Below, one piece after another: positions 16,536-46,150 of a stretch of DNA of 64,000 nucleotides. Positions within the stretch are counted from its first letter, which is position 1, and each line of letters opens with the position of its first letter. The position numbers and the translations under genes are program-made. The notes beneath the pieces are model-generated. The model saw only the letters and a list, made by a program, of their open reading frames with translations. It was not told where the DNA came from and did no database searches. This DNA is from Escherichia coli. Lineage in GTDB: Bacteria; Pseudomonadota; Gammaproteobacteria; Enterobacterales; Enterobacteriaceae. The DNA is taken from assembly GCF_017348835.2 (NCBI RefSeq), contig NZ_CP071375.1. The stretch is one strand, 5' to 3'.

Positions 16536-17465
16536 TTACTCCCCTTCACCCGGAAACAGGAACGGGTTGATGGAACTGCGGGCATAGCCTTCTTGCTCCA
16601 TTCGTGCGTCCAGTACCAGAGAGGCGAGGTCATCTGCTACGGCTTCGATTTTTGGATCTTTTTCCTGATAGAGAATTTTCAGGTAAGTGCCGCAGTCATC
16701 GCAGCTTTCGGCTTTAATCGCGGCCTGTTCGTCATCCAGCGACCAGTAATGCAGTTTGCCGCTCTGCTCGCAGTTGCTGCATTTTACGCGCACTACGTGC
16801 CATTCGGTTTCACACAGGTTGCAGTGCAGGTAACGCAGACCCTGAGTGGTGCCAATTTGCACCATGCTGGACACCGGCATAGAGCCACATACCGGGCAAT
16901 ATTGACGTTGTTCGCCGTATTCAGCGCGGGCTTTGCCGGGGATCAGATTGGCCATCTGCGCCCAGTAGAGCGACAGCGCAGCCCAGATAAACGGCGCTTT
17001 ATCGCTGCTGACGGACGAGAAATCAGAGGCAAACAGCGCGCTGGCCATATCTTCCAGCTCCTGAGTCGATGCCTTCTCCAGATTCTCAATCACTGCCAGC
17101 GCCGGGCCGCTCATTTCAGGTTTCAGCTCAGCAATTAGCGCCATCAGCAGCTTTTGCCAGTGCTTATCACGCGGCAGAACGTGAATATCCAGCGGGGGCT
17201 TGCCCTGTGCGCTGGCTTCTTTAATGCGCGCGGTCAGATCCATCTCCAGCGGATGGTCGTACAGCACCACTTCCTGGGCGTGGGCGATAAGCGCAGCAAA
17301 GCGCAGGTAATCACCCAGCGGATTATTTTCTGCCAGCTCGCGCAGACGCTCGGCGCGGCGGTTGTATAAATTCTTGAGCCGAGGGAACAATAACGGCGGA
17401 ATCATATCCGCCGTACGTTTCTCGCTCGAACCCAGCTCATCTTGCGGGATTATGCGAATACTCAT
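16536..17465 (-). CDS. fdhE: formate dehydrogenase accessory protein FdhE
   Basis: 309-aa ORF with multiple CxxC pairs; recognised FdhE. Confidence 0.92.
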
Positions 17466-18097
17466 TCAGCTTTCTTTTCCGTTGTCTTGCGGACCTCACG
17501 GTACCAGCGCGGGTGATGTTTCTTCGCCCAGGCGCTGGTAACCCATCCTTCCACCATGGCGGTAATCGTGCCTTTCACCCAAAGGGCGGCGTAGATATGC
17601 ACCATGATAACCACAATTAACGCCACTGCGGCAAATGAATGCAGCATTAACGCGAATCGGATCACCGGGATTGAGAAAGCAGGCGCAAAATAAGGACGCC
17701 AGATAATCACGCCGCTCACCAGCAGCAGAACCAGGAAAATAATCGCCGCCCAGAAAACGCATTTCTGACCGAAGTTATAACGCCCGGTGTCACCTACTTC
17801 CTCGTTGACGACGATCTTACGAATATTCTTCGCCCAAAAGATATCATCCCGATTGATTAGGTTGTGATGCCAGTAACGGAAAAACATGATGATGAACGAG
17901 GCAAACATAACCACGCCGACAAACGGGTGCAGAATTCGCGCCAGCTGCGGTGTGCCCATGATTTGCATCAACCAGTTGAAGGACGGGAACAAAAAGCCCA
18001 GCCCGCTCACCGCCGCCAGGATGAAGCAGAAGGCGGTGATCCAGTGGTTGATACGTTCCGGCGCGGTGTAGCGCACGATGGTGTCACGTCGTTTCAT
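17462..18097 (-). CDS. fdoI: formate dehydrogenase-O cytochrome b556 subunit
   Basis: 211-aa 4-TM ORF; overlaps fdhE and fdoH by 4 bp. Confidence 0.92.
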
Positions 18098-18996
18098 TTG
18101 CGCTCCTCGTCTTTCTCTTCGTGCAGATTATTCTCTTCCTCATCCGCACGGTTCGGACCGACACCCACGTAGTGGAAGATACTGGCTGCGAAGGTAGCCG
18201 CAAAGCCAACAGCTGCGAGCGGTTTCCAGATGCCTTTCCAGAATTTCACGGTTTCGCTGATTTCCGGGTTCTCCGGCAAGCCATGATACAGATTTGGCTT
18301 GTCAGCATGGTGCAGCACGTACATAACGTGTGTACCACCGACGCCTGCCGGATCGTACAGACCCGCATTGTCGTAACCGCGGGTTTTCAGCTCAGCAACG
18401 CGCTCGCTCGCCAGCGTTTTCATCGACTCTTTCGTACCGAAGTGAATCGCGCCCGTTGGGCAGGTCTTCACGCAGGCTGGTTCTTGCCCAACCACCACGC
18501 GGTCAACGCACAGCGTACATTTGTAGACGCGGTTGTCTTCCGGGTTGAGGCGCGGAATGTCGAACGGACAGCCCGCAATGCAATAACCGCAGCCAATGCA
18601 CTGCTCGGACTGGAAGTCGACGATACCGTTGGCATACTGAATAATTGCACCTTCCGCCGGGCACGCTTTCAGGCAGCCTGGATCGGAACAGTGCATACAG
18701 CCGTCTTTGCGGATCAGCCATTCCAGTTTGTCGTTCTGCTCCACTTCTGAGAAGCGCATCACCGTCCACGATTTGGCGCTTAAATCATTGGGGTTGTCGT
18801 ACACCCCAATGTTATTGCCGACGGTATCGCGAATGTCGTTCCACTCTGAACACGCCACCTGACAGGCTTTACAGCCGATACAGGTGGTGACGTCGATGAG
18901 TTTCGCCACTTCTTCCTGGAAGTCCCGCGCCTGAGGCGCGGGGGTCAGACCGTTAGTCGCGGAACGACGAATGATATCTTGCGATTGATAAGCCAT
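18094..18996 (-). CDS. fdoH: formate dehydrogenase-O iron-sulfur subunit
   Basis: 300-aa ORF with four ferredoxin-type CxxCxxCxxxCP clusters. Confidence 0.92.
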
Positions 18997-19008: not shown

Positions 19009-22000
19009 TTACACCTTTTCCACATTCACAAGGAAGGACTTAAACTCCGGCGTCTGCGTGTTCGCATCACCAACGAATGGCGTTAACGTATTGGCAATAA
19101 AGCCTTTTTTAGCTACGCCTTCATAGCCCCAGTGAATCGGAATACCGATGGTATCGATATCTTTGCCGTTCGCTTTCAGCGTGCGAATACGTTTGGTCAC
19201 CACCGCTTTGGCTTTGATATAGCCACGGTTGGAGGAGACTTTCACGGTATCGCCCTGGGCAATGCCAAGTTTATTCGCCAGCGACTCACCGATTTCCACA
19301 AACTGCTCTGGCTGCAAAATCGCGTTCAACAGCGCGTGTTTGGTCCAGTAGTGGAAGTGCTCGGTCAGACGATAGGTGGTTCCGACATACGGGAACTTAT
19401 CGGCTTTACCCAATGCTTCGGCGTCGTCTTTAAAGATTCGCGCAGCCGGGTTCGAGATAACGTTTGGATGCAGCGGGTTAGTTCCCAGCGGCGTTTCAAA
19501 CGGCTCGTAGTGTTCCGGGAACGGACCTTCCGCCATCTTATCGAGGGCAAACAGACGTCCCATGCCTTCCTGCTGCATGATAAACGGCCCGACGCCGCTG
19601 CCCGGAGGCGCTGCGCTGTAGTCCGGAATATCCCAGCCGGTCCACTTAGTGCCGTCCCATTTCAGCAACTGACGCTTCGGATCCCACGGGTTACCCTGCG
19701 GATCTGCGGAGGCGCGGTTATACAGAATGCGGCGGTTAAGCGGCCATGCCCATGCCCAGCCCAGTGTGTTACCGAGGCCAGACGGATCGGCGTTATCACG
19801 GCGTGCCATCTGGTTGCCTTCCGGCGTCCAGCTACCGGCGAAAATCCAGCAGCCACAGGAGGTTGTACCATCATCGCGCAGTTGGGCGAACGAGCTAAGT
19901 TGTTGGCCTTTCTTGACGATAACCGCACCGGTTGCCGGATCGGTAATATCGGCCAGCGCCTTACCGTTGCTCTCCATCGCTACTTCTTCCGACTTCGGCT
20001 CATGCGGAATGGCGTAGTTCCATGTCATGTTCAGCACCTGGTCCGGGTTCGCGCCACCCTGTTCGGCATACATCTTGCGCAAGCGCAGGAAGATACCGGA
20101 GAGGATCTCGCCGTCAGTCAGCGCAATCCCCGGGGCGTCCGCACCTTTCCAGTGCCACTGTAACCAGCGACCTGAGTTAACGATTGAACCGTTCTCTTCT
20201 GCGAAGCAGGTCGATGGCAGACGGAACACTTCGGTCTGGATCTTCGACGAGTCAACTTCGTTCAGCTCACCGTGGTTCTGCCAGAAGTTAGAGGTTTCAG
20301 TGTTCAGCGGGTCGATGGTGACGAGGAACTTCAGTTTCGACAGACAACCGATCACTTTGTTTTTGTTCGGGAATGAGGCAACAGGGTTAAAGCCCTGGCA
20401 GATATAGCCATTGACCTTGCCCTCTTTCATCATCTCGAAGTATTGCAGGACGTCGTAGCCTTTATCCCACTTCGGCAACCAGTCAAAGCCCCAGCTATTT
20501 TCCGCCGTCGCTTTATCACCAAAGAAGGCCTTCATCATGGAGACGAAGAATTTCGGGTAGTTGCCCCAGTAGTTTACCTGGCCTTCCAGCAGCGGTTTTG
20601 GCGTGTTGGCGGTAAGGTAGGTTTGCAGATCGGTCTGCTTCTCGCTTGGCAGCGTCATGTAACCCGGCAGGCTCTGCGACAGCAGCCCCAGGTCCGTCAG
20701 CCCCTGAATATTGGAGTGACCGCGCAGGGCGTTAACGCCGCCGCCTGCCATCCCCATATTGCCGAGCAGCAGCTGGATCATCGCCATCGTACGAATGTTC
20801 TGCGCACCAACGGAGTGTTGCGTCCAGCCGAGGGCATACAGGAACGAGGCAGTTTTATCGTGAGCACTGGTTTCTGCGATGTATTCGCTGACTTTCAGGA
20901 ACGCGTCTTTTGGCGTACCACAGATGTTTTCAACCACATCTGGCGTGTAGCGGGAAACGTGCTGTTTCAGCAAGTTCCACACGCAGCGCGGATGTTGCAG
21001 CGTGGTATCGCGTTTGGCGAAGCCGTTTTCGTCCAGTTCGTAAGTCCAGGAGGATTTATCGTACTTGCGTTTTTCCGCGTCATAGCCGGTGAACAGGCCA
21101 TCTTCAAAGCCGTAATCCTCACGCACGATCAGGCTGGCGTTGGTATAGGCTTCGGTGTATTCGCGGTTGAATTTTTCATTGTTCAGCAGGTACAGCAATA
21201 CGCCTGACAGGAAAGCAATGTCAGTACCGGAACGAATAGGGGCATAGTAGTCAGCCACCGCCGCCGTACGCGTAAAGCGAGGATCGATCACAATCAGCTT
21301 CGCGCCATTGTGAATTTTGGCTTCCATCGCCCAGCGGAACCCGACCGGGTGAGCTTCAGCGGCGTTACCGCCCATCACCACGACGAGGTTGGCGTTCTTG
21401 ATGTCGACCCAGTGGTTGGTCATCGCACCGCGACCAAATGTTGGAGCAAGACTTGCTACCGTTGGTCCGTGTCAGACACGCGCCTGGTTGTCGACCGCGA
21501 GCATACCCAGCGCGCGGGAGAATTTTTGCGTTAAATAGCCGGTTTCGTTACTCGACGCGGAAGCACACAGCATCCCGGTGGAGAGCCAGCGGTTAACAGT
21601 CACGCCTTCGGCGTTTTGCGCAATGTAGTTAGCATCGCGGTCTTCTTTCATCAGTTTGGCGATGCGATCAAACGCCTCTTCCCAACTGATTTGCTGCCAT
21701 TTATCAGAACCTGGCGCACGGTATTCCGGAAACTTCAGACGGCTTTCGGAGTGGATGAAATCCACCAGGCCAGCGCCTTTCGGACAAAGTGCACCGCGGT
21801 TGACCGGGTGATCCGGATCGCCTTCGATATGGAAGATAGATGCTTTGGCGTTTTTTGCTCCGTCACCGAGGCTGTACATCAACAGCCCACAGCCTACGGA
21901 ACAATAGGTGCAGGTATTACGGGTTTCGCGGGTGCGCAGCAGTTTATACTGCCGGGTTTCCGCGAGTGCTACGCTGGGTGCAAAACCCAGTGCCGCTGCC

Positions 22001-22059
22001 GTGGTGCCTGCCATACCGCCAGCGCAGATCTTAAAGAACTGCCTTCTGCTGACCTGCAT
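19009..22059 (-). CDS. fdoG: formate dehydrogenase-O catalytic subunit (selenocysteine-containing, molybdopterin)
   Basis: Two same-frame ORFs (21472-22059 and 19009-21423) separated only by an in-frame TGA at 21472-21474 = Sec codon; N-terminal Tat signal RRQFFK. Confidence 0.92.
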
Positions 22060-22252
22060 GGATTGCTCCTTGTTTCGACATTGTCACGTCCCATTTACAT
22101 TCGCTTGCTGCGTGTGCAGGGAGTGGGAGTTATTTTTCTTTGCGGAAGGGGCCGCAAAGGTCCAGAATTGGCTCAATTTCCCTCCATCCAGGAAGGGTTT
22201 GTAACAGAATACCATAATGTTGGTGTGTGTGTTCTTATCTGGTTAAGAGAAA

Positions 22253-23086
22253 GTGAAAAAAACACAGCAAAAAGAAATCGAAAATGTGACAAATATCACA
22301 GGTGTTCGTCAAATTGAGTTATGGCGGCGTGATGATTTACAACACCCACGGTTAGATGAGGTCGCGGAAGAAGTTCCCGTTGCGCTGGTCTACAACGGCA
22401 TTTCGCATGTGGTGATGATGGCGTCGCCCAAAGACCTTGAGTACTTTGCGCTCGGTTTTTCGCTTTCCGAGGGGATAATAGAAAGTCCGCGCGATATCTT
22501 CGGCATGGATGTCGTTCCTTCCTGTAATGGTCTTGAAGTACAAATTGAGCTTTCCAGCCGCCGCTTTATGGGGTTGAAGGAGCGCCGCCGGGCGCTGGCG
22601 GGACGTACGGGCTGTGGCGTATGCGGCGTGGAGCAACTTAATGACATCGGAAAACCGGTGCAGCCGCTACCGTTCACCCAGACGTTTGATCTCAACAAAC
22701 TGGATGATGCATTACGTCATCTCAACGATTTTCAGCCAGTGGGGCAACTGACTGGTTGTACTCACGCCGCTGCATGGATGTTGCCATCTGGCGAACTGGT
22801 CGGCGGGCATGAAGACGTGGGTCGCCATGTGGCGCTGGACAAACTGTTAGGCCGCCGGTCACAAGAAGGGGAAAGCTGGCAGCAAGGTGCGGTACTGGTT
22901 TCCAGTCGTGCCAGTTATGAAATGGTGCAAAAGTCGGCGATGTGCGGCGTAGAGATTTTGTTTGCGGTGTCTGCCGCGACCACGCTTGCTGTAGAAGTGG
23001 CTGAGCGCTGTAATTTGACACTGGTAGGTTTTTGTAAGCCGGGTCGGGCAACGGTTTATACCCATCCGCAGCGTTTGAGCAATTAA
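22253..23086 (+). CDS. fdhD: formate dehydrogenase sulfurtransferase/accessory protein FdhD
   Basis: 277-aa ORF, recognised FdhD; divergent from fdoG. Confidence 0.92.
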
Positions 23087-40986: not shown

Positions 40987-41072
40987 TGTAGGCCTGATAA
41001 GACGCTATCAGCGTCGCATCAGGCATCCTGCTCAAATGCCGGATGCGGCGTAAACGCCTTATCCTGCCTACA
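40987..41072. repeat. REP/BIME palindromic units between yiiM and cpxA
   Basis: gtaggcctgataagacgc...gcgtcgcatcaggca and gccggatgcggcgtaaacgccttatcctgcctaca. Confidence 0.75.
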
Positions 41073-46050: not shown

Positions 46051-46150
46051 TGCCTGATGCGCTTCGCTTATCAGGCCTACGTGAATTCTGCAATTTATTG
46101 AATTTACAAACTTTTGTAGGCCGGATAAGGCGTTCGCGCCGCATCCGGCA
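46051..46150. repeat. REP/BIME palindromic units between pfkA and sbp
   Basis: gcctgatgcgcttcgcttatcaggcctac and gtaggccggataaggcgttcgcgccgcatccggca. Confidence 0.75.

Follow-up and report, generated by a model that had tools for sequence, protein, structure and literature searches.

The in-frame UGA at codon 196 of Escherichia coli fdoG: a canonical bacterial SECIS element and the case for selenocysteine decoding

We examined a 64-kb stretch of Escherichia coli DNA (hereafter the window) that carries a formate dehydrogenase locus with the gene order fdhE-fdoI-fdoH-fdoG / fdhD / yiiG, which matches that of K-12 (b3891-b3895 for the formate dehydrogenase genes; Table 1). The longest of these genes matches K-12 fdoG (b3894) in length (3051 nt), in the number of its Sec codon (196), in its operon and in its neighbours; the locus differs upstream of yiiF, where an IS3-family element stands in place of the yiiE of K-12. 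In particular, 27 of the 3051 nucleotides differ from b3894 (99.1% nucleotide identity), two amino acids are changed (C391S and S689K) and codons 190-215 are identical, without any nucleotide difference. The product comprises 1016 residues counting Sec196 and has a twin-arginine signal (SRRQFFK) at its N-terminus. It scored 1571.8 bits against TIGR01553 (cut-off 814.2) and 1897.6 bits against chain A of PDB 1KQF, with an end-to-end alignment over residues 1-1015.

Table 1. Genes of the formate dehydrogenase locus and elements around codon 196 of fdoG, with positions in the 64-kb window.
Feature	Position	Strand	Evidence
fdhE, formate dehydrogenase accessory protein	16536..17465	-	NF002925, 604.5 bits; RefSeq agrees
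fdoI, cytochrome b556 (gamma) subunit	17462..18097	-	NF007924, 453.3 bits (cut-off 341)
fdoH, Fe-S (beta) subunit	18094..18996	-	TIGR01582, 478.7 bits; RefSeq fdoH
fdoG, catalytic (alpha) subunit of formate dehydrogenase-O	19009..22059	-	TIGR01553; 1KQF; K-12 b3894; RefSeq CDS
Full Rfam SECIS_3 match (UGA, hairpin, 3' flank), 59 nt	21419..21477	-	RF01989, 84.3 bits
Lower SECIS stem, 3' arm	21427..21437	-	Paired in the MFE structure
Apical SECIS hairpin, GGUAGCAAGUCUUGCUCC	21443..21460	-	Helix 99.7% paired in 44 distinct homologues
Spacer from UGA to apical hairpin, 11 nt, CACGGACCAAC; also 5' arm of the lower stem	21461..21471	-	Sequence, regex
UGA codon 196, Sec (Mo ligand position)	21472..21474	-	Only internal stop; opposite X196 of 1KQF
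fdhD, sulfurtransferase for formate dehydrogenase maturation, divergent	22253..23086	+	TIGR00129, 340 bits; RefSeq agrees

The paralogue fdnG (formate dehydrogenase-N alpha; b1474, the protein of 1KQF) lies elsewhere, in fdnGHI, and has 74.7% nucleotide identity overall and 76.9% protein identity to fdoG, being colinear over 1015 residues with Sec at the same position. The NCBIfam models tell FdnI and FdoI apart, and the fdoI product, which passed the FdoI model, reached 243.6 bits against the FdnI model NF007558, under its cut-off of 339. Operon context, identity and the FdoI model together assign the gene, as far as sequence comparison can tell, to the fdoG orthologue and not to fdnG. The name fdoG, already given in the first-pass annotation, is thus borne out by synteny and by the identity to b3894. 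The neighbouring fdhD has a role in formate dehydrogenase maturation (PMC6239281). Finally, a match to the 'FdoG-1 thermometer' was found upstream with 32 bits, under the threshold of 50; we rejected this candidate, which consisted mostly of the Shine-Dalgarno sequence and the conserved first codons.

Translated as a single frame, the minus strand from 22059 to 19009 gives one frame of 1017 codons with a terminal TAA, and its lone internal stop is the TGA at codon 196 (21474..21472). The list of open reading frames presents this gene as two minus-strand pieces, 21472..22059 (195 aa) and 19009..21423 (804 aa), which share one frame (22059 - 21423 = 636 = 212 x 3). The first-pass annotation had described them as parted by the TGA alone; this is true of the frame, and besides the TGA there is a gap of 16 codons (21471..21424, 48 nt), open in-frame and encoding HGPTVASLAPTFGRGA, because the list begins the second piece at its first ATG (21423). 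Additional frame disruptions, which the same annotation had named as an observation that would speak against its reading, were searched for across all 1017 codons of fdoG and none was present. Its placement of the TGA at the conserved Sec position also holds: by alignment, codon 196 falls on the Sec residue that serves as Mo ligand in the FdnG/FdhF family (Table 1), and the context of fdnG Sec196 and fdhF Sec140 is the same.

The Rfam SECIS_3 model (RF01989) matched the region over its full length (model positions 1-59 of 59) and above its gathering score of 63, with E = 1.1e-19 in a 5-kb scan and 1.4e-18 in the whole window. The fdoG element has in common with SECIS_3 the UGA, the 11-nt spacer and the apical hairpin with a bulged U and a loop G-U. 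The hairpin is laid out as GG-U-AGCAA-GUC-UUGCU-CC, with the bulged U at 21458 and the loop G-U-C at 21452..21450. The UGA stands directly 5' of the hairpin, pairing starts at 21472/21471 and the paired region extends over approximately 21472..21427, where a SECIS hairpin had been predicted at about 21425-21470. The classical SECIS of fdhF (RF01988, SECIS_2) shares with fdoG the ARV-U-HGP context and the GGU...GGUC...CC hairpin, and the SECIS_2 model matched fdoG weakly (28.1 bits vs 70). The bulged U and the loop G-U are SelB contact features, according to studies of E. coli fdhF and fdnG, and by analogy the apical hairpin would be the SelB-binding part of the element. A literature search on the bulged U and the loop GU gave only indirect support, which concerned the 11-nt spacing; a design with 11 nt between the Sec codon and a bacterial SECIS has been used experimentally (PMC8326192). 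Taken as a whole, the fdoG element is a canonical bacterial SECIS, with an apical hairpin on a less conserved lower stem.

Segments of 61 nt and 51 nt both folded into the expected hairpin, so that the stem-loop whose absence had been named as evidence against selenocysteine is in place, with the covariance-model score given above. The minimum free energy was -17.5 kcal/mol, which is at background level (z = -0.39 vs dinucleotide shuffles, 64 of 200 shuffles folding as well). Against 5000 synonymous recodings, the stability of the fdoG SECIS gave z = +1.18 (weighted) and +0.13 (uniform). Thus, of the proposal to fold the 40 nt after the UGA, the hairpin itself was recovered and an energy above background was not, and we dropped folding energy as SECIS evidence because shuffles and recodings were equally stable. 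The combination of 11-nt spacer, GG-U-bulge and GU loop survived in only 44 of the 5000 recodings (0.9%). The case rests on the specific architecture, the score of the covariance model and the comparative results, not on the energy.

We then compared 117 homologues from other species, collected with the downstream GAMTNHW motif in an unbiased scan. At the homologous codon, 114 of them, from many phyla, had TGA and the other three TGT or TGC. Pairing of the apical helix was nearly complete among 44 distinct homologues (Table 1), and two of its seven pairs showed double changes, namely columns 24:36 (GC in 33, AU in 9) and 27:33 (AU in 36, CG in 8), both of which fall at synonymous third positions. 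The observed covariation score was reached by none of 500 shuffles, and pairing in slid controls did not exceed 50%. U23, G29 and U30 were invariant in the 44 homologues, and codon +7 was always AGU (19 out of 19 Ser) or GGU (25 out of 25 Gly), so that the loop G-U is kept. None of the three Cys-type homologues had a SECIS match or any of the SECIS architecture; with n = 3 recovered, the contrast is suggestive and carries no statistical weight.

Constraint was also evident at the nucleotide level between the two E. coli paralogues. The longest identical run between fdoG and fdnG is 71 nt (21477..21407), begins 3 nt ahead of the UGA and includes the SECIS, while the next longest is 36 nt; all 16 informative synonymous codons in the 71-nt run are identical, vs 57% gene-wide (P ~1e-4). 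In a third-position comparison with Photorhabdus, Providencia, Yersinia, Citrobacter and E. albertii, restricted to flanks with enough sequence, identity was 94-100% in the SECIS and 39-77% in the flanks (39-55% without the Citrobacter fdoG orthologue). Since the SECIS is itself part of the coding sequence, the choice of codon and even of amino acid is limited over approximately 15 codons after Sec.

These data bear on the possibility that the UGA is read through without Sec, by a near-cognate tRNA-Trp or tRNA-Cys, and that the conservation is due to the protein or to gene conversion between fdoG and fdnG. The background-level stability of the hairpin and the highly conserved peptide after the UGA are compatible with it, and gene conversion could in principle yield the 71-nt identity of the paralogues. 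However, conservation of the protein cannot produce the 100% identity of synonymous third positions in the SECIS between genera whose flanks reach only 39-55%, and it leaves unexplained both the covariation of 24:36 and 27:33 at synonymous sites and the restriction of codon +7 to AGU and GGU. Moreover, gene conversion within a genome cannot account for conservation between families, the Cys-type homologues have a similar peptide without the element, and the literature describes a Sec ligand for FdoG (PMC6239281). We therefore give this explanation almost no weight.

Another possibility is that fdoG represents two separate genes forming a split catalytic subunit, with termination at the UGA and re-initiation at the ATG at 21423, an in-frame start that does exist 16 codons past the TGA. 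That ATG, though, encodes the conserved internal Met of GRGAMTNHW, present in 117 out of 117 homologues, and the HGPTVASLAPTFGRGA codons, which would be left untranslated between the two products, are conserved in the peptide they encode and correspond to an unbroken, density-bearing stretch of 1KQF. Residues flanking the Mo ligand would be lost together with HGPTVASLAPTFGRGA, and the SECIS match would be left without a role. A split subunit is accordingly very hard to reconcile with the data, and we regard it as extremely improbable.

A true nonsense mutation or sequencing error, which would make fdoG a pseudogene in the source strain, is suggested by the 195-aa and 804-aa pieces of the naive ORF call and by the many public gene calls that hold the same two halves as separate proteins, but it is effectively refuted, with a negligible probability, as the stop is not sporadic (K-12 fdoG and fdnG carry the TGA at this codon too, and fdhF has it at the homologous position; TGA in 114 of the 117 homologues from many phyla; of 5451 matching E. 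coli records, 5419 are at least 99% identical over the 141 nt around the TGA), there is no second disruption in the 1017 codons, and constraint at the protein level is not relaxed over the 820 codons downstream of the TGA, with 2 amino acids differing from K-12.

As regards public records, the first-pass annotation had stated that automated annotation often mis-calls this gene as a pseudogene. This did not hold for RefSeq E. coli, in which a named fdnG CDS lay under the match in 50 out of 50 sampled records, and the one RefSeq record that we viewed in full had an intact 3051-nt CDS without a pseudogene flag; the name that RefSeq/PGAP prints for fdoG is 'fdnG'. The statement was right in spirit for other pipelines, which split the gene: the 195-aa half was called as a separate protein on at least 1000 contigs and the 804-aa half on 14 contigs.

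The lower stem was less uniform, with 84-87% pairing in the homologues and an ambiguous register. On the E. coli sequence, the Rfam SECIS_3 register leaves A11:C51 and A15:G47 unpaired, whereas in Enterobacterales (A15, U48, C51) the lower stem pairs better than in the SECIS_3 consensus register when shifted by one nucleotide. This shifted register is better in Enterobacterales and worse in the family consensus, and we preferred neither. A speculative reading, which we consider rather unlikely, is that the lower stem of Enterobacterales fdoG and fdnG uses 15:48 and not 14:48 / 15:47, and that the complete freezing of all 17 third positions of the SECIS between families then reflects a constraint beyond SelB binding. 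If true, such a constraint might be, for example, control of the competition between UGA decoding and RF2, or a requirement common to both paralogues, and it would also dictate Ser (AGU) or Gly (GGU) at residue 203.

Taking all these lines together, we are highly confident that this E. coli fdoG is intact and that the TGA at 21474..21472, its codon 196, specifies selenocysteine. Following the mechanism established in E. coli, a ribosome reaching the UGA would meet SelB-GTP-Sec-tRNA(Sec), with the selC product as its tRNA, bound to the apical hairpin through the C-terminal domain of SelB, and SelB, competing with release factor 2, would bring the Sec-tRNA(Sec) to the A site. Once complete, the protein of 1016 residues would take up Mo-bisMGD and a [4Fe-4S] cluster, and Tat would export FdoG together with FdoH, with FdoI as the anchor of the resulting formate dehydrogenase-O. 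All three E. coli formate dehydrogenase catalytic subunits, FdoG included, have Sec as a ligand to Mo (PMC6239281). A tRNA search of the 64-kb window found none, so selC is not located there, and neither are selA, selB and selD; of 5426 complete E. coli genomes, 5424 carry selC, and the source strain probably has selA, selB, selC and selD, as expected from its species.

Selenocysteine decoding in fdoG is already known and is textbook biology; E. coli formate dehydrogenase-O is an established selenoenzyme, and nothing here is biologically new. On the methodological side, the free energy of the hairpin is a poor test for a SECIS within a coding region, and the informative tests are the covariance model, the frozen or covarying synonymous sites and the Cys-type homologues as natural controls. 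The main value of the analysis lies in annotation hygiene: reporting fdoG as two open reading frames or as a pseudogene is wrong, and the gene should be recorded as one selenoprotein of 1016 residues with a translation exception at codon 196.

The minus-strand interval 22059..19009 translates in a single frame of 1017 codons ending in TAA, and codon 196 (TGA, in the context GCG CGT GTC TGA CAC GGA CCA ACG GTA GCA AGT CTT GCT CCA ACA TTT GGT CGC GGT GCG ATG) is its sole internal stop. The first-pass annotation had described fdoG as two same-frame ORFs parted by a selenocysteine (Sec) UGA; both ORFs are indeed listed, and the further frame disruption that it regarded as contrary evidence is absent across the 1017 codons. 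The frame is open over the 48 nt from the TGA to the ATG at 21423, which code for HGPTVASLAPTFGRGA, and this gap is an artefact of ORF listing. The Sec reading of codon 196 was borne out by alignment with the crystal structure of the paralogue FdnG (1KQF, residues 1-1015), where the selenocysteine 'X' at position 196 stands opposite the TGA. The ARV-U-HGP context is common to the fdoG site, fdnG codon 196 and fdhF codon 140, and each of the three formate dehydrogenases of E. coli has a catalytic subunit (FdhF, FdnG or FdoG) that coordinates its bis-MGD cofactor via selenocysteine (PMC6239281).

We assigned the gene to fdoG and not fdnG because of synteny and 99.1% identity to K-12 MG1655 fdoG (b3894): fdoH, fdoI and fdhE lie downstream and fdhD, then yiiG, are divergent, exactly in the K-12 order. 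The two fdoG genes are of equal length (3051 nt) and differ by 27 nt and 2 amino acids, none in codons 190-215. The substitutions are C391S and S689K (window 20887-20889 and 19993-19995, minus strand); at position 391 FdnG also has Cys, like K-12 FdoG. The gamma subunit passed the FdoI model NF007924 (453 bits, cut-off 341) and failed the FdnI model (243.6 bits, cut-off 339). The FdoG protein scored 1571.8 bits against TIGR01553 and carries a twin-arginine signal, SRRQFFK. The 3.4 kb around fdoG had matches in 5425 of 5426 complete E. coli genomes and were 100% identical, fdoG allele included, to PE164 and F2_81, both pig strains.

The SECIS hairpin expected just 3' of the UGA was recovered as a full-length match to Rfam SECIS_3 (RF01989) at 21477..21419 (minus strand; 84.3 bits against a gathering score of 63, with a whole-window E of 1.4e-18). 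It is established for the elements of fdhF and fdnG that SelB contacts the bulged U and the G-U of the loop. In recombinant selenoprotein work, a spacing of 11 nt separates the Sec codon from the bacterial SECIS (PMC8326192).

Coordinates of the recoding site, its SECIS anatomy and other Rfam matches in the window
Feature	Position	Strand	Basis
TGA (UGA codon 196)	21474..21472	-	direct sequence reading
N-terminal ORF, 195 aa	21472..22059	-	ORF list
C-terminal ORF, 804 aa	19009..21423	-	ORF list
Spacer, 11 nt, CACGGACCAAC	21471..21461	-	sequence reading
Apical hairpin GG-U-AGCAA-GUC-UUGCU-CC	21460..21443	-	sequence reading
Bulged U	21458	-	sequence reading
Loop G-U-C	21452..21450	-	sequence reading
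Lower stem, 3' arm, pairing with spacer	21437..21427	-	sequence reading
naRNA4	40991-41068	-	Rfam gathering-level match, 78.6 bits
ES036 sRNA	46073-46114	-	Rfam gathering-level match, 44.6 bits
ClpQY (hslVU) promoter element	61298-61355	-	Rfam gathering-level match, 63.6 bits

RNA folding had been proposed as a check. The hairpin forms, but the 61-nt segment (-17.5 kcal/mol) was not more stable than dinucleotide shuffles (z = -0.39), and the stability of a 51-nt segment did not exceed that of 5000 synonymous recodings of its peptide (z = +1.18 with codon-usage weighting, +0.13 uniform); such a test would therefore 'pass' yet prove little. What decides between a SECIS and chance is not free energy: architecture, the paralogue, comparison between genera and other species do so decisively. 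The specific apical architecture survived in only 44 of the 5000 recodings. fdoG and fdnG share 74.7% of their nucleotides, and their longest identical run, 71 nt (21477..21407; runner-up 36 nt), covers the UGA and the SECIS; none of the 16 informative synonymous codons in it differs, where the gene-wide rate of identity is 57% (P about 1e-4). Third-position identity in the 59-nt element reached 94-100% against Photorhabdus, Providencia, Yersinia, Citrobacter and E. albertii, compared with 39-55% in the flanks (70-77% for the Citrobacter fdoG orthologue), for flanks with enough comparable sequence. Gene conversion alone would not account for the SECIS conservation, since the identity holds between genera.

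We scanned other species (one genome each) for the downstream peptide motif GAMTNHW, a pattern that excludes the UGA and hardly overlaps the hairpin. Among 117 usable homologues, TGA lay exactly 15 codons upstream of the motif in 114 and TGT/TGC in 3. Across 44 distinct FdnG/FdoG-like sequences the apical helix was 99.7% paired (at most 50% once the helix partners were slid), with compensatory double changes at synonymous third positions: the Val:Ala pair was GC in 33 and AU in 9, and the Ala:Leu pair AU in 36 and CG in 8. The observed covariation score was reached by 0 of 500 shuffles. Residue +7 was always either Ser encoded by AGU (19/19) or Gly encoded by GGU (25/25), so that the loop G-U is preserved. 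Each of five Sec-type loci tested in this clade matched SECIS_3, with scores of 66-84 bits. At the three Cys-type loci there was no SECIS match and nothing of the architecture.

That the UGA is read through independently of Sec, with conservation due to protein sequence alone, is very improbable, as it fails to account for the frozen or covarying synonymous sites. Re-initiation at ATG 21423 in a split gene deserves equally little credence: the codon specifies the internal Met conserved within GRGAMTNHW, and the 16 residues in between are conserved and form continuous structure in 1KQF. A nonsense mutation or pseudogene is excluded, the TGA being near-universal and the gene free of other lesions.

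In the lower stem (21427-21472, minus strand) the Enterobacterales sequence (A 21466, U 21433, C 21430) pairs better in a register one nucleotide off the Rfam SECIS_3 consensus; in other taxa T15:A48 and G15:C48 variants favour the shifted register and C14:G48 variants the Rfam one. Which register applies matters little, since SelB binding is ascribed here to the apical hairpin.

A second clade (U-HS[AS]TVA...; loci L005, L007 and about 50 others), comprising FdhA-type genes of Desulfobacterota, Bacillota and Chloroflexota, has TGA at the identical codon and a different hairpin, often with GCU at the apex and without the GG-U bulge; neither of two loci tested reached the SECIS_3 gathering score. 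In Candidatus Burkholderia verschuerenii (L008), the Sec-containing formate dehydrogenase gene has a tRNA-Sec gene (492-583, minus strand; 68.5 bits) at a distance of about 10.5 kb, and the locus ends in a group II intron fragment. An fdnG-like gene whose SECIS region is about 75% identical to the window's occurs on some plasmids or secondary replicons of E. coli (the 197,640-bp NZ_JBXULY010000002.1 and 25 plasmid places).

In the fdoG leader (22030-22228, minus strand) RF02778, the 'FdoG-1 5' UTR thermometer', matched below threshold (32 bits, gathering 50; E = 3e-5); the well-aligned portion is the Shine-Dalgarno region and first 10 codons, and conserved coding and Shine-Dalgarno sequence may be its whole cause. 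The window's second translational recoding signal is an ALIL pseudoknot (RF01497, 15030-15146, plus strand, 116 bits), within an IS3-family transposase annotated with programmed frameshift; this element lies upstream of yiiF, where K-12 has yiiE.

The claim that the gene is often mis-called a pseudogene did not hold for RefSeq E. coli, where all 50 sampled records had a named CDS at the match (the one opened in full gave the gene as one unbroken 3051-nt CDS, not flagged as a pseudogene), but elsewhere the gene is commonly split. The exact 195-aa half (21475-22059, minus strand) occurs as its own protein on at least 1000 contigs (cluster of 3382 members), and the exact 804-aa half (19012-21423, minus strand) on 14 contigs (cluster of 6687 members). 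Some N-terminal halves, in Cronobacter malonaticus and Hafnia alvei, even go by the name 'sulfate ABC transporter substrate-binding protein', and a 2026 preprint reports the same split, into fdhA and 'fdoG', from mycobacterial annotations (10.64898/2026.03.03.709296). In all 50 sampled records PGAP named fdoG 'fdnG / formate dehydrogenase-N subunit alpha'; the equivalog model TIGR01553 is named after FDH-N and draws no distinction between the paralogues.

fdoG combines an intact frame, a UGA at the Sec position and a canonical, evolutionarily constrained SECIS; the first-pass annotation was right in observation and interpretation, and the biology is entirely known already. The window contains no selC, but 5424 of 5426 E. 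coli genomes carry it. If decoding follows the pathway established for E. coli, SelB·GTP·Sec-tRNA(Sec) would bind the apical hairpin while the ribosome nears and decode the UGA in competition with RF2, after which the ribosome would unwind the hairpin and continue translation. FdoG should then join FdoH and FdoI as the periplasm-facing formate dehydrogenase-O (PMC6239281).
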